NCBI GenBank assembly: GCA_964527395.1
Contig: CAZGQD010000001.1
Coordinates: 3,000-66,999 of the forward strand
Length of the DNA: 64,000 bases
Origin: an uncultured Methanosarcinales archaeon
GTDB taxonomy: Archaea > Nanobdellota > Nanobdellia > Woesearchaeales > GW2011-AR9
Direction of reading: 5' to 3'
In this document: positions 2,186-36,452 of the stretch, piece after piece
Layout of the letters: each line of letters begins with the position of its first letter
Numbering within the stretch: the first letter of the stretch is position 1
Made by a program: the position numbers and the translations under genes
The notes under the pieces: generated by a model
Told to the model about the DNA's origin: nothing
The model's input: the letters and a program-made list of their open reading frames with translations, nothing else
The model's database searches: none

Positions 2186-3025
2186 TTACTTAGCTGCTTG
2201 TGCTTCTTGTTGTATTTTTTCAATTGCTTCTTTGAGTGGTGTTATTGGAACACCTTGCCAGTTGTCTGGTCCGTTGTATCTAGCATGTTCTTCTGCTTCA
2301 GGACTGTAGAAAATTAAATCTTCTAGAAGAGTAATATCTCTTGTGTGTAAGTCTAGTTCAGAAACAGTTTGGTATAGACACTTATTAATGAATCCTCCTC
2401 CAATTAGTAGCTGTCTATTGGCAAAGGCAAAAGCTTCATTAGGAAATTGAAGATCTCCTTTATCTGCTTTAGTAACTATAACTCTATCAACTAAACCTTG
2501 TTCGACTAAGTGTGCTGTCCCAAAAGGATAATGATCTGCTGTTTCAAATACTACTCTTGATAATCCTAAGGTTTTTGCTTGTTTTAGAGTTTCAATACTT
2601 TTTTTGCCAATATCTCTAACTTCTTCCCTATATCTTCCTGAACCAGTTCTGTAGTGACATATTTGTGCATAAAATGGATGAACAAAAGCTAAAACTTGAT
2701 TTTTGAGAGGAGTTTGGATACAGTTATTGTTGTATGCGTGAGCAAGAGTTAGGTTTAAAGTACTTGTTCCAGATTCGCTATTATAGTTTGATCTACTTGT
2801 TTTTCTGTTTTTTGCTCTAGCTTCAAGCAAATCTCTGAATGGTTTGAAAAAAGGTGGAATTGATAATCTTGGTGAAAGTGGGAGACCTAAAGTTTCGTGG
2901 AGTTCAGGATCATAAGTAGTTATCCGCGAGCAAGCTCTTGGAAATCCTTGATTTCCAGATGCATAATGCTGAGCATTCTGCACTCTTGGGACTTGCTTTG
3001 TATACTCATCAAGTATTTGAGACAT
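2186..3025 (-). CDS. Hypothetical protein (start moved to internal ATG; carries a hairpin repeat element in frame)
   Basis: Long ORF. ATG at 3025 sits about 28 nt downstream of a minus-strand TATA (cttttataaaaaaa, 3047-3059). No family recognised. Confidence 0.5.
   Translation of the reverse strand: MSQILDEYTKQVPRVQNAQHYASGNQGFPRACSRITTYDPELHETLGLPLSPRLSIPPFFKPFRDLLEARAKNRKTSRSNYNSESGTSTLNLTLAHAYNNNCIQTPLKNQVLAFVHPFYAQICHYRTGSGRYREEVRDIGKKSIETLKQAKTLGLSRVVFETADHYPFGTAHLVEQGLVDRVIVTKADKGDLQFPNEAFAFANRQLLIGGGFINKCLYQTVSELDLHTRDITLLEDLIFYSPEAEEHARYNGPDNWQGVPITPLKEAIEKIQQEAQAAK
2923..2996 (+). repeat. Family B hairpin element, triple-hairpin variant, inside the minus-strand ORF 2186..3025
   Basis: tccgcgagcaagctcttggaaatccttgatttccagatgcataatgctgagcattctgcactcttgggacttgc aligns with 8606-8682. 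Read through as ..HYASGNQGFPRACSRI... Confidence 0.7.
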
Positions 3026-3046
3026 AATTTTTGTTTTATTTTGAAG

Positions 3047-3059
3047 TTTTTTTATAAAA
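3047..3059 (-). promoter_or_regulatory. TATA box for 2186..3025
   Basis: Minus strand reads cttttataaaaaaa, about 28 nt upstream of ATG 3025. Confidence 0.5.
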
Positions 3060-3132
3060 GTGAGTAGGATTTTGTGGATTTTGCTAATTTGTTTGAGAAA
3101 TATTAAAAAATAAGATTTCTTGTAGAACTGCA

Positions 3133-3654
3133 ATGGTACTTGATTTTGAATGTTTGTTGTCAGATTCACTAGATTCTATTGGGTTCTCTGGTGAGAAACA
3201 TGAGTTTTTGGTACATGATGGGTCTGTTCATGAAATAAATCCGCAGTGTTCTATGATGCTTGATAGATATTCTACTGCCCTTCATGGAGTTGTAGATCAT
3301 GTGAATGGTCGTTATTCTGCTGTTTTTGGTGAAGGGAAGGGTTTTGATCTCTTGAATTGGGTTAGGCACAATAATTATGACGAATTGGCCTATTTTTTGT
3401 CAGAAACAGGTAATAATTGTCTTAATCATAGTCAGAATCTGGCTCCACATAAGATTTTTTTGTATCTGGGATCTAAGGGGTTTGTAGTGGCGGTGGAGCA
3501 TGAAGGGGAGGGTTTTGATGCAAAAAAAGTGGATTTTAAGGGAATTTATCAGAATGAAGGGGCGGCTTTTGACTTTTATAGAGGTTGTGGGTCAAAAGTG
3601 TTTTTTGATGATAAAAATGAAGCTAAAGTGGTATTTATGGAGTTTTTGCTTTAA
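3133..3654 (+). CDS. Hypothetical protein (weak GHKL/HATPase-like HEGEGFD motif)
   Basis: ORF with a TATA-like aaatattaaaaaataa about 25 nt upstream. The motif resemblance alone is weak. Confidence 0.4.
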   Translation: MVLDFECLLSDSLDSIGFSGEKHEFLVHDGSVHEINPQCSMMLDRYSTALHGVVDHVNGRYSAVFGEGKGFDLLNWVRHNNYDELAYFLSETGNNCLNHSQNLAPHKIFLYLGSKGFVVAVEHEGEGFDAKKVDFKGIYQNEGAAFDFYRGCGSKVFFDDKNEAKVVFMEFLL

Positions 3655-3843: not shown

Positions 3844-4116
3844 ATGAAAGGAACAGTAAAATTTTTTAACAGTGGCAAAGGATACGGCTTTGTTAGTGCA
3901 GAAGACGGAAAAGACTATTTTGTACATTTGTCTGGTATTTTAAACAATGCTAGATTAAGAGATGGTGACGCAGTTAACTTCGAAATCGAAGACGGAGACC
4001 GTGGACCAAAAGCAGTTAACGTTACACTTGCAGAAGGTGGAGATTCAGATTCAAACGATGAAGAAGCTCCAGCTCAAGAAGAATCAGCTGAAGAAGCAGA
4101 TTCAGATGAAGAATAA
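3844..4116 (+). CDS. Cold-shock domain protein with acidic Ser/Asp/Glu C-terminal tail
   Basis: MKGTVKFFNSGKGYGFVSAEDGKDYFVH is the canonical CSD RNP1/RNP2 region. The last ~30 aa are D/E/S-rich. Confidence 0.9.
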   Translation: MKGTVKFFNSGKGYGFVSAEDGKDYFVHLSGILNNARLRDGDAVNFEIEDGDRGPKAVNVTLAEGGDSDSNDEEAPAQEESAEEADSDEE

Positions 4117-4184
4117 ATATTAATATATTCTTTTGATTCTTTTTAATTTTTTATTTTAATATTATCTTTTGAATTGTGTGGAAA

Positions 4185-7150: not shown

Positions 7151-7414
7151 TAGAAATCCTCAAACGGGGCGAGGCCAATGTCGAGCAAAGCTCTCCTAGC
7201 TTATTTATCCTCAAAGATTTTTCGGGACTTGACTATTCGCCAAGTTTCCAAGGAAAAATAAATGAAGAGGCTCTTCTCCGCGTTCATGGAAACCAAGGCT
7301 TTCCAGACGCATAATCAAAGATTTTGCATTCGTTCGTACCTCACTCAGGTCGAATGATCAAGCTCTATTGAAGAAGGTCTCTTTTTTGCGTAGGCGCCCC
7401 CGAGAGGATTTCTA
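7151..7414 (+). repeat. Long composite hairpin element (family L, full-length copy), closed by an 11-bp outer helix and a GGGGCG/CGCCCC inner helix
   Basis: tagaaatcctc (7151-7161) pairs perfectly with gaggatttcta (7404-7414), and ggggcg (7165-7170) pairs with cgcccc. The interior holds module 7171-7216 (also in the radB 5' region) and a family B double hairpin at 7283-7332. Confidence 0.7.
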
Positions 7415-8562: not shown

Positions 8563-8605
8563 CTTGATAAAGTTAAATAAATTTTTTGAGTTTATAATAG
8601 TTGTG

Positions 8606-8682
8606 TCCGCGAGCTTTGCTTATGGAAATCAAGGATTTCTAGATGTAGAATAAAGAATTTTGCACTTCTAGGACTTGGTTGC
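8606..8682 (+). repeat. Family B hairpin element, triple-hairpin variant (intergenic copy)
   Basis: tccgcgagctttgcttatggaaatcaaggatttctagatgtagaataaagaattttgcacttctaggacttgg aligns along its length with 2923-2996. Confidence 0.7.
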
Positions 8683-8744: not shown

Positions 8745-9022
8745 GAGGGTTTAAATTGGTCAAAACTGTAAAAACGAGCTTTAAATTGGCTAAATCAGTA
8801 AAAATGGCTTCCTTTTGCTCTAAAACGGTCAAAATGATCTTTAAATTGAAAAAAGAGGCTAAAATTGGCTGTTTTTGCTCTAAAACGGTCAAAATGATCT
8901 TTAAATTGAAAAAAGAGGCTAAAATTGGCTGTTTTTGTCCTAAAACGGTCAAAATGATCTTTAAATTGAAAAAGGAGGCAAAAATGACCTCTAAAGTGAA
9001 AAAGAAGGGAAGTGGTTTTGTG
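8745..9022. repeat. Tandem repeat array, 60-bp period (two near-identical units plus degenerate flanking units)
   Basis: Units 8821-8880 and 8881-8940 differ at about one position, and 8941-8985 is a third partial unit. Each contains GGTCAAAAT sub-motifs. The array ends with gaaaaagaagggaagtg followed by a TATA box. Confidence 0.85.
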
Positions 9023-10920: not shown

Positions 10921-11026
10921 CGCTTTGCTTATGAGGTTATCGCAGGCGTGACCACTCGCTTTGGATTTTGCTCTTGTTGGTCGCAAAATGCTCGTTAATA
11001 TGGTCTTGTTTTGGATGGGATTGCCA
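10921..11026 (+). repeat. Family A structured repeat, copy A1
   Basis: Core atcgcaggcgtgaccactcgctttggattttgc...gcaaaatgctcgtt...ttgccagtagggga is shared with the copies at 20.3, 21.4 and 25.8 kb. Confidence 0.75.
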
Positions 11027-11098
11027 GTAGGGGACTGTGTTAATCTTTTATTTGTAATTTCTTTTTGTATGTGTTGAGTTTGTCTAGAATTTGGTGGT

Positions 11099-20269: not shown

Positions 20270-20458
20270 GTACGTATTAAGTTACATTTTATATCTGAAG
20301 ACAGTACCGTCAGGCTTACTGCAGGCGTGACTACTTCGCTTTGAATTTTCCAAATCGCTACTTGGAAAAATGCTCGTTGTTTAGGTCTTGTGTTGAATGA
20401 GAGTGCCAGCAAGAGGACGGTGCTGTCTTCATAATAATTAACGTAACTTAATACGTAC
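20270..20458 (+). mobile_element. Family A repeat copy A2 carried on long hairpin arms: perfect 16-bp terminal inverted repeats flanked by an 8-bp direct repeat (MITE-like)
   Basis: gtacgtattaagttac (20270-20285) is the reverse complement of gtaacttaatacgtac (20443-20458). gtatttga occurs immediately outside both ends (20262-20269 and 20459-20466). The core gcaggcgtgactacttcgct...tgccagcaagagg lies between ~41-nt imperfect arms. Confidence 0.7.
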
Positions 20459-21348: not shown

Positions 21349-21524
21349 GAGAATTGTGGGTATCAGACTTAACTTCAAGCAAGCTTTCGGAACTTAGTTC
21401 ACATGTTCACTAAGTATCGCAGGCGTGACCACTTCGCTGTGATTTTTCCACTTTGTGAAAAAATGCTCGTTGTTTAGGTCTTTTGTTGGAGGGGAGTGCC
21501 AGTGAGGAGATACCCACAATTCTC
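21349..21524 (+). repeat. Family A structured repeat, copy A3, closed by a perfect 16-bp copy-specific helix
   Basis: gagaattgtgggtatc (21349-21364) pairs with gatacccacaattctc (21509-21524). Core atcgcaggcgtgaccacttcgctgtgatttttcc...gaaaaaatgctcgtt...gtgccagtgagga. Confidence 0.8.
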
Positions 21525-23589: not shown

Positions 23590-23790
23590 GAATCGGGAGA
23601 AATGAAGGTGCTTTTTGGCTAAATCGATAATATTTGCTTTCTTTTGGTCTAAAACGGTAATTTTGAGCTTCTTTTTGGTTTTAATGGTAAAAATGAGCTC
23701 TATTTGGCAAAAGGAGGTCAAAATTGTCTGCTTTTGGTGTTTAGCGGTCAAAATTGCCTGCAAATTGAAAAAGAAGGGAAGTGTTTTAGA
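23590..23790. repeat. Degenerate repeat array related to 8745-9022 (GGTCAAAAT-type units), ending with the same gaaaaagaagggaagtg motif before a TATA box
   Basis: ggtctaaaacggtaattttgagc, ggtcaaaattgtctgc and ggtcaaaattgcctgcaaattgaaaaagaagggaagtg resemble units of the 8.8-kb array. Confidence 0.65.
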
Positions 23791-25317: not shown

Positions 25318-25635
25318 TTAATATTTCCATTTACTGTGGCCGAAGGCTATGAATAAATCGAAACCTTTGACGTTTGGAGTGTCACAAGCACCATAACAGT
25401 CTCCTGCCCAGAATGTGATGTTTAAAGTAGGGATTGCTTTTAGAAGTTCTTCTTGGATTTTGTTTGCTTTTGGTTTTAAGCCGTCTGGAAGTTGAATTAG
25501 AACTGTTTTAGGATTCTTGGAAACAGAGTTTCCAGACGCAAAATTAGAAGATTTTGCATTTTCTTCTTTGATTTTTTCTATAGCTTTGTCTAGCTCTAGG
25601 TTCAATTCTAAGTGAGTTTTGATTGCTTCTGACAT
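25318..25635 (-). pseudogene. dph2: Diphthamide synthase Dph2, N-terminal ~100 aa only (truncated or split), with a 14-aa repeat-element insertion
   Basis: AK..KTVLIQLPDGLKPKANKIQEELL...GDCYGACDTP...FDLFIAFGHS matches domain 1 of archaeal Dph2 (AKRVLIQSPEGL...YGACD...LIHLGHS). The ORF stops right after GHS, whereas Dph2 is normally ~330 aa. Confidence 0.6.
25514..25560 (+). repeat. Family B double-hairpin element inside the Dph2 fragment (in frame)
   Basis: ttcttggaaacagagtttccagacgcaaaattagaagattttgca has hairpin 1 ggaaac/gtttcc and hairpin 2 gcaaaat/attttgc. It corresponds to the extra SSNFASGNSVSKNP. Confidence 0.75.
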
Positions 25636-25752: not shown

Positions 25753-25879
25753 CTTTACGCTCATCAGACTTAGTGCAGGCGTGACCACTGCGCTGTGATT
25801 TTGCTTCCGTTGGTCACAAAATGCTTGTTGTTAGTTAGATGTGTTGAGTGGGATTGCCAGTAAGGAGATGAGCGTGCAG
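25753..25879 (+). repeat. Family A structured repeat, copy A4
   Basis: Outer helix ctttacgctcatc / gatgagcgtgcag. Core agacttagtgcaggcgtgaccactgcgctgtgattttg...caaaatgcttgtt...ttgccagtaagga. Confidence 0.8.
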
Positions 25880-32145: not shown

Positions 32146-32493
32146 ATGTTACGAGGACATTTGAGAGTAAGGACTTTTAATTTTGATCTTGCTGACTGTG
32201 TAGATGAGGCTTTTGCTTTGTTGAGAAGAAGTTATGTTGGGCCAGGAGTTGGAGAAGAAGTCTCATCTGATGATGGCTGTCTTGAATTAAAGGATGCTGT
32301 TTCAGGTTCAACTAGGTTTTTAGTGAATGGAGAAAATATTAGTGTTATGGTTTCTTATGATGCTGGGTTTGGTGGAACTGAATATGCAAAAGGTGTAGAA
32401 ATGGTTTGTGGAGATAATTTAGCAGTAAATGGTCAGATTAGAGATTTTGTTGATTATTTAGATACTCATGCGAATAGGGAGAAGTATTCTTGA
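32146..32493 (+). CDS. Hypothetical small protein (its 3' end is duplicated at 36411-36452)
   Basis: ORF with TATA ctttataagg at 32115-32124. No family recognised. Confidence 0.45.
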   Translation: MLRGHLRVRTFNFDLADCVDEAFALLRRSYVGPGVGEEVSSDDGCLELKDAVSGSTRFLVNGENISVMVSYDAGFGGTEYAKGVEMVCGDNLAVNGQIRDFVDYLDTHANREKYS

Positions 32494-33754: not shown

Positions 33755-33844
33755 GTGGTAAGTTACGTTAAAATTTGTGGTATTGATCATTTAGAAGATG
33801 CTCTTACTGCAATTCATTATGGAGCAGATGCATTAGGTTCATGA
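33755..33844 (+). pseudogene. 5' fragment (29 codons) of the TrpF-like gene, cut off by stop codons supplied by a hairpin element
   Basis: GTG about 25 nt downstream of tttataaa (33724-33733). (M)VSYVKICGIDHLEDALTAIHYGADALGS* is the canonical PRAI N-terminus (VKICGI..ED...A...GADA.G). Confidence 0.7.
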
Positions 33845-33889
33845 AAATTATAAATTTTCAGACGCAGAATTAAAAAAATTCTGCATTTT
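33839..33889 (+). repeat. Family B double-hairpin element interrupting the TrpF-like gene
   Basis: Hairpin 1 is gaaaat-tataa-attttc (33843-33859) and hairpin 2 is gcagaat-taaaaaa-attctgc (33864-33884). In-frame TGA at 33842 and TAA at 33851. The downstream ORF resumes in the same frame at GTG 33890. Confidence 0.8.
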
Positions 33890-35833
33890 GTGATAACAGA
33901 ATCTAGAGATAATCCAATTAGAAGGGAAAAATATCAAAAAATAGTAACACAAACTCCTTCTCATATAGATACTTATTTGGTTACTACATTTACTGATTAT
34001 GGTACATTGTCTAGTTTGATTAGTGAAATTGGTTTTAGTGCAGTTCAATTGAATGTTGATGCTAGAAAAGGTTCTGGACAAATAGAAGATATTTCAATTG
34101 AAGATATTCAAAAATTGAGAGAAAATTTTCCTGATTTGAAAATAGTTAAGGGAATTGTAATAAATTATGAGGTTGAAAAAGGAGTTAGTCCAATTGAGTA
34201 TGGCGAGAGATTTCTACCTTATGTGGATAATGTTCTTTTAGATGCAGTATCTGTTGATGATAGTGGAAGATTACTTTTCATGGAAACTGAGGGTTTCCAG
34301 ACGCTGCTCTCAGCAGCACATGGAGGAACAGGGATTACATTAGATTGGGATGATTGTAGAAGATTTGTTGATCAATATGGTTTTGATGCTAATAATTCCA
34401 GACAAGTAATCTTAGCAGGGGGTCTAAATAGGCATAATGTTCAAGAAGCAGCAGCAAAAACAGGAGTTATGGGAGTTGATGTACAATCAGGAGTTGGAAA
34501 GTGGAGAAAGGATTATTTGTTACTTGAAGATTTTCTAAAAAATGCTAAGAGTAGGGAAGCTCAGAGAAGAGTAACAACTGGAATGACATTTAAGGATTTA
34601 GCTGAAAATTTGCCGGTTTTACCTAGACAACACCTATTTAGAGAAAGAGAAGAGTACTTAAGTTCAATTTCTGATTTAGAAACATTCAGAAGAGCTCTTT
34701 ATTTTTCACAAAGAACTGATGCTGTTGGAAGACCAAGAATTAATGAGGAAGAATGGGGAAGAGTAGCTTCTAAGTTAGGAGATTTGGCTGATATTGTTGA
34801 AAGAAATACAGCAAGACATGCAGGAGATGTAGTATTCAGGTCGAATAATTATTTCTTAGGACATACACTATTTGGAATATTTGGAGAAGAAGCAAAAAAA
34901 GAAGGAGAAAAAGTTGCAAGCGAAATTGATTTAAGATTTAAAGAAAATGAGGGTTTGATAGCTAAATTAGCTTCAAAAGGAGAAATTTCTAGGGATATTA
35001 ACTTACAAATACCTATATTTAGTGTTTTAGATCATCAAAAGCAGTACGCATTACTTTTAATGAAGAATGTATATACTGCAATGAGAAAGGCTGATAAAGC
35101 TGGAAAAAGACCTGATGAGGTAATAAGTAGAGAAGATTTTGATACTTTATTTCAATTATGTCAAGATACAGTTTCAGTTGCATATAGGTTTATTCTTACT
35201 GGAGAGGTTATTCCAATTGATTATAAAAGTGATTTTGTTGAAAAACTCACAAACAAGTTAGAATTTAGTGATTGGAAAGATTCTTGGAGAGAAATGGATG
35301 ACCCTGCTAAAATTCTTTTATATACTATAAATGCTATGCAAAATCTTGAAAGAGAAGTAGATTTGATAGTAAATCCTTTCTCAGGAGGGATGGAGTTAGG
35401 GTATGCTTTTAGAGGAATTACTGCAGCTTTAGGAAAGGATGTTGTTAGAGATGTTTTGCTGCTGAAGTTTTCAATGCATGGTGATGGAGATGACTTAGTT
35501 GATTATCCAAAAGAGCAATGGTTTGAAAAACTTGTAAGTGGAGGGATTCCAAGATTAATAAGAGATGAGGCAAGAGGAAAATTATTGGTTAATCATGGAT
35601 TAATAATTGATGATAATACTACTTCTAAAAGTACACTAGCACAAATTAGAGAAGCTGTTACTAGTAAGGGAATTAATCAAGGAAGATATGGGATATGTGC
35701 TATTGAAATAGGAAGGTTAGATAAAGTGAATTTTGATGAAACAATTCTTACTGATTTAGAATTTGAAGCGATAGGTGATAGGATGAGTGAAAAGCATAAA
35801 ACTGGATTAGTAGCAGAATCTCTTAAAATATGA
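33890..35833 (+). CDS. Fusion protein: PRAI (TrpF)-like TIM barrel, central helical region, C-terminal type I phosphoribosyltransferase domain
   Basis: GGTGITLDWDD...VILAGGLNRHNVQEAA...GVDVQSGVG are TrpF C-terminal motifs, and GLIIDDNTTSKSTLAQI is the type I PRT PRPP-binding loop. Same frame as the 33755 fragment. Confidence 0.7.
   Translation: MITESRDNPIRREKYQKIVTQTPSHIDTYLVTTFTDYGTLSSLISEIGFSAVQLNVDARKGSGQIEDISIEDIQKLRENFPDLKIVKGIVINYEVEKGVSPIEYGERFLPYVDNVLLDAVSVDDSGRLLFMETEGFQTLLSAAHGGTGITLDWDDCRRFVDQYGFDANNSRQVILAGGLNRHNVQEAAAKTGVMGVDVQSGVGKWRKDYLLLEDFLKNAKSREAQRRVTTGMTFKDLAENLPVLPRQHLFREREEYLSSISDLETFRRALYFSQRTDAVGRPRINEEEWGRVASKLGDLADIVERNTARHAGDVVFRSNNYFLGHTLFGIFGEEAKKEGEKVASEIDLRFKENEGLIAKLASKGEISRDINLQIPIFSVLDHQKQYALLLMKNVYTAMRKADKAGKRPDEVISREDFDTLFQLCQDTVSVAYRFILTGEVIPIDYKSDFVEKLTNKLEFSDWKDSWREMDDPAKILLYTINAMQNLEREVDLIVNPFSGGMELGYAFRGITAALGKDVVRDVLLLKFSMHGDGDDLVDYPKEQWFEKLVSGGIPRLIRDEARGKLLVNHGLIIDDNTTSKSTLAQIREAVTSKGINQGRYGICAIEIGRLDKVNFDETILTDLEFEAIGDRMSEKHKTGLVAESLKI
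34277..34323 (+). repeat. Family B double-hairpin element, second copy inside the TrpF-like gene (open, in frame)
   Basis: ttcatggaaactgagggtttccagacgctgctctcagcagcacatgg has hairpins ggaaac/gtttcc and gctgc/gcagc. It lengthens the segment between LLD and GGTG relative to typical TrpF. Confidence 0.7.
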
Positions 35834-35878: not shown

Positions 35879-36271
35879 ATGGAATTAGCAATAGATCAAC
35901 AAAAAAAAGTTCAAACACTACTGGTTGAGTTAGTTGGTGGAACAGATGTTGATTGGCCAAAAGACGATTATCGTGCAGCTAGAAGAGTTGTTAATCAAAG
36001 AATAAATGATTATATTGTTGATTTTTATGAAAAAACTAAAGATTTGCCTTTTCAGGATTTCCATGAATTTGCAGAAAGAGCTGGATTTGTCTGGGAGAAA
36101 TTAAGATTAGGGTTAAGAGAAGAAGTTTCAAGAGTTTATGCAGATCAAGAACAAATCAAGAATAGATTGCTTAGTTATATCGGTTCTGAAGAACATGGAA
36201 GGATTGCACATCTAGAAGTAGATTATATGATGACTCGAAGACCTTCTTGGATTGATGAGTATAGAACTTAG
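35879..36271 (+). CDS. Hypothetical protein (130 aa)
   Basis: ORF 45 nt after the fusion gene. Its 5' region is partly duplicated at 36306-36370. Confidence 0.5.
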   Translation: MELAIDQQKKVQTLLVELVGGTDVDWPKDDYRAARRVVNQRINDYIVDFYEKTKDLPFQDFHEFAERAGFVWEKLRLGLREEVSRVYADQEQIKNRLLSYIGSEEHGRIAHLEVDYMMTRRPSWIDEYRT

Positions 36272-36287: not shown

Positions 36288-36452
36288 TATGGAAAAAAGG
36301 AATTAATTGAGCTAGTTGGTGGAACAGATACAGTTTGGCAAAGAAATGATTATTTTTCAGCAGAAGATTTGATTGAAGGGATTTAGCATTAAGTGAACAA
36401 ATAAGAAATTCTGTTGATTAATTGTATACTCATGCGAATAGTATTCTTGATG
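36288..36452 (+). pseudogene. Gene remnants: frameshifted copy of the 5' part of 35879..36271 followed by a copy of the 3' end of 32146..32493 (DR2b)
   Basis: ttgagctagttggtggaacagat... matches 35925-35990, reads ELIELVGGTDTVWQRNDY and has no start codon. ctgttgattaattgtatactcatgcgaatagtattcttga matches 32447-32493 with a 7-nt gap. Confidence 0.65.

Follow-up and report, generated by a model that had tools for sequence, protein, structure and literature searches.

A double-hairpin element inserted into a TrpF-like gene of an uncultured archaeon

The interrupted gene and its uninterrupted orthologs

In a 64,000-nt stretch of DNA from an uncultured archaeon (contig CAZGQD010000001.1 of assembly GCA_964527395.1; hereafter the window, positions 1-64000), a gene for a TrpF-like protein is divided by a 48-nt segment that folds into two hairpins. 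The first part of the gene, a stub beginning at GTG 33755, reads VVSYVKICGIDHLEDALTAIHYGADALGS in the open reading frame (ORF) translation and runs into two in-frame stops, TGA at 33842-44 and then TAA at 33851-53, both within the 48-nt segment. The frame of the stub reopens at GTG 33890 and ends at 35833 (Table 1). An earlier note on this DNA had described the arrangement in these terms, that is, as a PRAI/TrpF-like N-terminus, two stops and a resumption in the same frame at 33890, and its coordinates were confirmed here. Gene calls in two ENA assemblies (L006 and L007) likewise give a 29-aa product. A TATA-like motif about 31 nt upstream is common to many first-in-operon genes of the window, and from the position of such a box the mRNA of the TrpF-like gene is predicted to be probably leaderless, or nearly so, from GTG 33755.

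Deleting positions 33839-33886 in silico yielded a continuous protein (...GADALGFVITESR...), identical there to ortholog P0002; the peptide spanning the restored junction would be ICGIDHLEDALTAIHYGADALGFVITESR. This reconstructed protein of 676 aa matches the Pfam profile PRAI (PF00697) with 62 bits against a cut-off of 22.7, covering profile positions 1-190 of 193, and it aligns to TrpF of T. maritima (1lbm/1nsj), VKICGI included. Both results bear out the earlier suggestion that removal of the segment would yield a plausible TrpF N-terminus. The interruption falls at the alpha1/beta2 boundary of the PRAI barrel, and the stub aligns to residues 4-31 of the T. maritima enzyme, which means that the segment lost is beta1-alpha1. 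By profile and alignment the host gene is PRAI/TrpF-like, its enzymatic specificity being a prediction.

For the C-terminal region of about 430 aa, there was no Pfam or PDB family match, as sequence searches match the PRAI part alone; the label 'PRT' previously given to this region is a tentative one. The region holds a PRPP-loop-like motif, GLIIDDNTTSKST. Structure prediction of the intact ortholog from a 4-sequence alignment gave a mean pLDDT (predicted local distance difference test) of 33.5. Among the 5.8 billion proteins searched, the architecture of a PRAI domain plus about 430 aa was found in four clusters (P0001-P0004), all of them from assemblies of two study series, SUTE22-1 and SCRA20-1.

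The ortholog P0002, encoded at locus L001 in the same sample as the window, is 87% identical to the window protein, uninterrupted over 676 aa, and reads MVSYVKICGIDHLEDALTAIHYGADALGFVITESRD at the corresponding place; P0004 (655 aa, 72% identity) is likewise uninterrupted. The earlier note had raised the question whether orthologs lack the 48 nt, and both L001/P0002 and P0004 do read straight through. At the empty site L001 reads GGTTTTGT, and the window reads GGTT[46 nt]TTTTGT. In the DNA alignment, GGTTTTGTA of L001 stands against GGTT-CATG...CTGCA-TTTTGTG of the window, so that 48 nt are cleanly inserted, with the junction ambiguous by 2 nt (TT). As the ortholog is uninterrupted and has an empty site, the 48 nt represent an insertion. 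GTG 33890 was formerly placed inside the element; it is instead the native Val30 codon, which is GTA in L001 and GTG in L002. That the frame is preserved across the insert is weak evidence by itself, since one length in three would be divisible by three through chance alone.

L005, L006, L007 and L140 carry exactly the same insert (at least four independent assemblies and at least three samples). An 86-nt string spanning the junction recurs in ENA assemblies from three separate samples and in one JGI assembly, and the protein index holds eight contigs with the same 647-aa call (three from ENA/NCBI and five from JGI). An assembly or sequencing artefact was conceivable a priori, and assembly error was among the explanations raised before. 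Because the identical insert recurs across assemblies of different samples, assembly error is excluded, and we regard the chance of an artefact as negligible. The interrupted alleles are 100% identical in the part that they share. One of them, L007 (P0003), is a recombinant, in which the first ~425 residues, including the 48-nt insert, are those of the window allele, and the last ~215 are those of the P0004 allele (the one of 72% identity).

Table 1. Parts of the TrpF-like gene and copies of the double-hairpin element (c1-c6) in the window.
Feature	Position	Strand	Description
N-terminal stub of TrpF-like gene	33755..33844	+	29 codons; beta1 with KICG motif and alpha1; ends at the element-borne TGA
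Rest of TrpF-like gene	33890..35833	+	ORF of 647 codons, in frame with the stub; remaining PRAI barrel and ~430-aa uncharacterised C-terminal region
TATA-like box TTTATAAA	33725..33732	+	30 nt 5' of GTG 33755
c5	33840..33885	+	Sense in TrpF-like gene; 46-nt core CATG...TGCA; adds 48 nt; flanks TT 33838-39 and TT 33886-87; carries TGA and TAA
c6	34279..34318	+	Sense in the same TrpF-like gene; open in-frame 42-nt insertion, read as FMETEGFQTLLSAA; precedes the GGxGxxxDW phosphate-binding motif
c4	25516..25558	+	Antisense in mini-Dph2 gene (25318-25635, minus); open in-frame 45-nt insertion, read as AKSSNFASGNSVSKN
c1	2937..2982	+	Antisense in the N-terminal part of a minus-strand ORF (2186-3169); open in host frame; adds 48 nt; translation plausible (the sole distant homolog, P0006, begins downstream of c1)
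c2	7285..7328	+	Intergenic, between adenylate kinase and helix-turn-helix genes; adds 46 nt, not a multiple of 3
c3	8621..8664	+	Intergenic, adjoining the PAP2 gene promoter; degenerate, with G-T pairs; adds 46 nt

A family of double-hairpin elements on one DNA strand

The insert (c5) forms hairpin 1 from positions 33842-49/33853-60 and hairpin 2 from 33864-71/33877-84. Both are perfect, as had been noted from the letters alone, and the fold agrees with this, having a minimum free energy of -13.8 kcal/mol as RNA and a z-score of -3.5 relative to shuffles. The insert had also been assigned to a repeat family, and a scanner for a 'hairpin-AGAYG-hairpin' arrangement substantiates this assignment, finding family copies against ~0.17 matches expected in shuffles. 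The window has six copies in all. The element core is 40-46 nt long and has the form 5'-C(A/T)TGGAAAC-loop-GTTTCC-AGAYGC-hairpin 2-TGCA-3', the ends being CATGGAAAC...TGCA. All six copies have the same fold with two hairpins each, and the stems show compensatory changes, both in hairpin 1 (GGAAAC/GTTTCC, GGAAATC/GATTTCC and GAAAAT/ATTTTC) and in hairpin 2 (GCAGAAT/ATTCTGC, GCAAAAT/ATTTTGC and GCTGC/GCAGC). A relaxed scanner recovered all six and ranked them highest, the one exception being an unconnected pair of hairpins. This pair (4081-4132, plus strand) is a double hairpin on an AGATG core (GAATCAGC..GCAGATTC and AAGAATA..TATTCTT) just 5' of the gene for TruD; it has no sequence relation to the element family and may be a terminator-like structure.

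Clean presence/absence polymorphism was seen in relatives for three copies, namely c5 (versus L001), c6 (versus L002) and c4 (versus L142). Copy c6 is present in the window and in L001/P0002 and absent from L002-L004/P0004. The 15 residues of c4 are absent from all ten aligned homologs, and in the DNA of L142, the ortholog from TARA, the empty site is GGATTTTCTTC. The statement in the earlier note that the family is translated through in other genes thus holds for c6 and c4 insofar as both are verified insertions with open frames, their translation being predicted. The lengths added by the genic copies are 48, 45, 48 and 42 nt and those added by the intergenic ones 46 and 46 nt. This is compatible with selection filtering for insertions that keep the frame, which has been reported for the palindromic elements of Rickettsia (RPEs). 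An open host frame is weak evidence alone, because about half of all frames through the element copies are open. Copy c5 lies in the 'SWK' phase of the element, a phase that is open in four of the five other copies; its AT-rich hairpin 1 turns TGG into TGA, and the loop of this hairpin supplies TAA.

Two observations concern individual copies. When the window gene is compared with that of L001 (88% nucleotide identity), copy c6 and its immediate flanks (34271-34324) make up the second-longest stretch free of differences (54 nt), and only 1.7% of 42-nt windows are free of them. Either the nucleotide sequence of c6 is under constraint, or the copy is younger than its flanks or has been exchanged relative to them. 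Similarity beyond the element is shared by copies c1 and c3 (2925-2935 and 8605-8618), TCCGCGAGC upstream and GCACTYYTRGGACTTG downstream, which suggests either a longer subfamily or the duplication of a segment with the element already in it.

Every one of the six copies is on the G-rich plus strand, while the host genes of the genic copies are found twice on the plus strand and twice on the minus strand. The binomial probability of this strand bias is about 0.03, with six copies only. On the plus strand the GC skew ranges from +0.2 to +0.44 over most of the window. Over positions 1-64000 this skew is nearly uniform whatever the gene orientation, with no change of sign, and there is therefore no origin or terminus within the window. 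The fixation of the copies to one DNA strand, in either orientation to the host genes, argues for an element that acts at the level of DNA rather than RNA.

Matching dinucleotides flank five of the six copies (CT/CT, TT/TT, CT/CT, TT/TT and TT/TT). The verified targets of c4 and c5 are the middle of a TTTT run following GG(A/T), and because both lie in T-runs, a 2-nt duplication and a 48-nt element inserted without duplication are indistinguishable. The upstream flanks differ (AAGCT, GCGTT, TTGCT, AGGATT, TAGGTT and ACTTTT), with no fixed upstream motif evident among them, and the termini of the element, 5'-CATGG...TGCA-3', are not inverted repeats.

Rfam gave no match at the gathering score over the whole window, and none at E<=1 around the site. 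The pattern TGGAAAN{4,9}TTTCCAGAYGC returned at least 120 stretches from a genome collection, each in a different unrelated genome and, among the 87 matches listed, none with a second hairpin of the family form, so that this pattern is too loose to inform. Nothing comparable to the element family occurred in about 0.9 Mb of unrelated DNA that had been chosen for containing the first hairpin, and a stricter pattern found eight matches in JGI metagenome contigs, all of them in contigs of 44-50% GC and without the second hairpin, as arise by chance. Within the collections scanned, the family is thus seen only in this population and in the close relative L001.

Among known small repeats, RPEs are palindromic sequences of ~100-150 bp in Rickettsia that occur between genes and in frame within them, and insertion of MITEs, the miniature inverted-repeat transposable elements, can inactivate genes (PMC10969869). 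Like RPEs, the present elements are short, repeated, non-autonomous palindromes that are found in intergenic regions and in genes, where they stand in frame as apparent extra loops; c4 and c6 are alike in this, both having open frames and predicted translation. They differ from RPEs, which are bacterial, much longer and marked by a conserved peptide in each family, in having 40-46 nt and two different hairpins, an archaeal host, both gene orientations, a strict strand bias and no sequence relation, and c5 is untranslatable. With MITEs (for example Correia elements and the archaeal MITEs of Sulfolobus and Haloquadratum) they share a small size, several copies, the lack of a transposase gene, insertion polymorphism and possibly short flanking duplications (matching YT in five of six copies); in contrast to MITEs they have no terminal inverted repeats, fall below the typical MITE size, keep to a single strand and have no cognate autonomous element identified.

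A third group to be compared comprises the PATE and REP elements (palindrome-associated transposable elements and repetitive extragenic palindromes) of the IS200/IS605 type, which are linked to Y1/HUH enzymes and which, like the present family, have subterminal hairpins in place of inverted repeats and an orientation that follows the chromosome strand. Elements of the IS608/ISDra2 type are mobilised as single-stranded DNA at the replication fork, and a strand-tied orientation is expected of them. However, IS200/IS605 elements leave their target unduplicated and go in 3' of a fixed motif of 4-5 nt, whereas here the flanks resemble a 2-nt duplication, no fixed motif is evident, the two hairpins differ in sequence, and the window encodes neither TnpA nor RAYT. 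By sequence, size or defining features, the family belongs to none of these three groups; in its behaviour it is like RPEs and MITEs, being non-autonomous, variable between relatives, tolerated within genes when in frame and disruptive on occasion.

Probable loss or possible rescue of the interrupted gene

Most likely, the TrpF-like gene has suffered a recent disruptive insertion of an RPE/MITE-like element, leaving a young pseudogene or a gene with an N-terminally truncated product. In this scheme, a small non-autonomous element has inserted into TTTT at codons 29/30 of the PRAI(TrpF)-like gene, and its AT-rich copy c5 puts TGA and TAA into the frame of the gene. Translation from GTG 33755 on a probably leaderless mRNA would then stop after 29 codons, the barrel would be deprived of beta1 (with the cysteine of KICG) and of alpha1, and the 647-codon downstream ORF, having no start signal of its own, would amount to a very young pseudogene yielding at best traces of a truncated protein. 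Mobilisation would have taken place at the DNA level, possibly via single-stranded DNA tied to replication. Loss of the gene is plausibly tolerated, because its neighbours are of the accessory type (RhuM, PIN and a PD-(D/E)XK nuclease) and relatives have different neighbours. A recent disruptive insertion was the first of the possibilities considered in the earlier note, and this part of it stands, by virtue of the empty site in L001; the accompanying proposal of a restart from GTG 33890 has nothing positive in its favour, as that codon is native to the gene and has no Shine-Dalgarno sequence, and as the transcript would be leaderless from GTG 33755.

Several findings weigh against the loss of the gene by a mobile element. 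No transposase, including Y1_Tnp, TnpA and RAYT, was found among the ORFs of the window that were scanned with Pfam. The downstream ORF is intact over 647 codons, and the window branch has 37 synonymous and 22 non-synonymous codon changes versus 50 and 20 on the branch of the intact L001, that is, no measurable relaxation, although such branch-wise counts cannot separate a recent pseudogene from an ORF that still functions. The interrupted allele is apparently fixed in every assembly of the strain, and it is found also in the recombinant haplotype L007 with the ORF kept open. The intact ORF, the codon counts, fixation and recombination fit a very recent insertion and an expressed, useful ORF equally. 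With a recent insertion decay would not yet be visible, all interrupted alleles being identical in their shared part.

The downstream ORF might accordingly still be expressed from GTG 33890, either by reinitiation or from a promoter made by the element itself (ATTATAAA at 33847-54, in hairpin 1), with the ~430-aa C-terminal region remaining useful. We consider this unlikely, even though the ORF is unbroken, non-synonymous changes are not in excess on the window branch, the allele has outlasted a recombination event and recurs in several samples, and the loop of c5 (TTATAAAT) looks like the TATA boxes found in this genome. The 20 nt 5' of GTG 33890 contain no Shine-Dalgarno sequence, while some internal genes of the window have one; the gap from stop to start is 45 nt; and the TATA-like sequence in c5 starts about 43 nt upstream of the GTG, not at the ~31 nt usual in the window. 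The protein so made would contain a barrel without beta1 and alpha1, and the apparent conservation of the ORF is fully explicable by the recency of the insertion. A different way to retain function, in which a ribosomal or RNA-processing activity skips the double hairpin such that the full-length TrpF-like protein is made, would make the locus the archaeal equivalent of T4 gene 60 or of the byp elements in yeast mitochondria. Such skipping would explain why the interrupted allele is fixed and recombining and why its 647-codon ORF is kept in frame; we hold it to be very improbable. Other routes through the insert were rejected: a variant genetic code, since TAA, TGA and TAG all terminate ORFs in the window (28, 12 and 11 ORF ends, respectively); a frameshift, since the +1 frame (ALGFM...) also reaches a stop and no other frame stays open; readthrough, since two stops would need to be read through; and transcriptional slippage, since the A7 run lies downstream of both stops.

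Removal of the 48 nt by the archaeal splicing endonuclease, as an intron of a protein gene with a bulge-helix-bulge (BHB) motif, would restore the 676-aa protein, and the earlier note had left this possibility unproven. The host is archaeal (EF-1alpha, RadA and mini-Dph2), exact removal gives a textbook TrpF N-terminus identical to P0002, and a short insert of this kind recalls the intron of cbf5 in Crenarchaeota. We scanned positions 33780-33950 in both topologies for two 3-nt bulges on opposite strands that are separated by a 4-bp helix, lie at the splice sites and are bordered by flanking helices. No candidate cleaves at any of the three possible junction pairs (33837/85, 33838/86 or 33839/87); the best junction pairing has three of four central pairs and at most one flanking pair, and BHB-like matches under lenient settings number nine in the region against a mean of 20 in background windows. 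The local fold is dominated by the element's own two hairpins. Moreover, the family is independent of the orientation of genes, c1 and c4 being antisense to their hosts and all copies being fixed to one strand, and the verified genic copies c4 and c6 keep the frame of their hosts open, which is what translation, as opposed to removal, would predict. Splicing is thus scarcely credible here. Ribosomal bypassing of the T4 gene 60 or byp type fares no better: the gap of 48 nt has nearly the length of that in gene 60 (50 nt), a hairpin-forming insert with an in-frame stop sits in an otherwise continuous ORF, as it does there, the TGA directly follows a sense codon at the 5' base of a stem-loop, and the insert, like byps, is a mobile hairpin element; yet the matched take-off and landing codons and the mini-Shine-Dalgarno sequence that characterise bypassing (10.1101/2022.08.31.505936) are absent here. 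No matched or wobble-matched pair of such codons resumes in frame. For the codons that precede the stop (..GCA TTA GGT TCA), the stretch from 33854 to 33890 offers no cognate partner in frame, there being no in-frame GGN or TCN ahead of FVITESR, and the single TCT (33880-82) is out of frame and leads into TAG. The stretch 33870-33889, which reads TTAAAAAAATTCTGCATTTT, has no GAG or GGA mini-Shine-Dalgarno sequence 5-7 nt before the point of resumption. The TCA-TGA at 33839-44, whose TGA overlaps the 5' arm of hairpin 1, is due to the structure of the element and is not specific to bypassing. To our knowledge, bypassing has not been described in archaea, and we judge it to be a most improbable explanation for this gene.

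For the TrpF-like gene itself the outcome is deflationary, as a knock-out or truncation by a mobile element is neither a new intron nor a case of recoding. Rickettsia is the best-known source of palindromic insertions that are in frame and apparently translated; in the present case a far smaller element, in a DPANN archaeon with a reduced genome, is inserted in either orientation to the gene, and its strict chromosome-strand polarity hints at single-strand, replication-linked mobilisation. If this pattern holds genome-wide, it would provide a compact model for the remodelling of proteins by tiny mobile hairpins in archaea with streamlined genomes, and also a warning for the annotation of such genomes, in which split genes and spurious ORFs of 29-42 aa would have to be expected.

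Host organism and other features of the window

The window carries genes for EF-1alpha, RadA, ribosomal protein S2, a class II ribonucleotide reductase, aspartyl-/asparaginyl-tRNA synthetase (AspRS/AsnRS), TruD, HerA and mini-Dph2, and on account of these genes it is taken to be a chromosomal segment of a DPANN (Woesearchaeota-like) archaeon. The highly conserved mini-Dph2 gene that hosts c4 codes for 105 aa, which match the first ~56 positions of the Pfam profile Diphthamide_syn alone. A search for this family gave 335 matches of 79-115 aa (mostly ~85), which by their source names belong to Woesearchaeota and Nanoarchaeota. The possibility that the Dph2-like ORF is a broken gene was rejected, since it belongs to this widespread ~85-aa family; mini-Dph2 could be an N-terminal module of Dph2 that is split off or stands alone.

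A second and unrelated family of intergenic repeats of ~100 nt has four copies on the plus strand (10931-11035, 20310-20412, 21408-21505 and 25764-25868), two of them upstream of the genes for rpS2 and EF-1alpha. Its core is GCAGGCGTGACCACT...AAAATGCTCGTTG...TGCCAG, it has no Rfam match, and RNAalifold predicts a weak closing stem and an inner hairpin with one compensatory pair. The family could represent a non-coding RNA, a leader or another mobile element.

Tandem repeats with a period of 60 nt and at least three units, together with a related pair 14.8 kb away, occupy 8762-8985 and 23591-23784 (families D1, D5 and D9). Short duplications of 78-82% identity (D19 and D20) link 32417-32477 with 36381-36441 and 35925-35979 with 36307-36361. 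Downstream of the TrpF-like gene they lie around an ORF of 130 aa, and upstream of it near one of 115 aa, which suggests local duplication or rearrangement in an accessory region.

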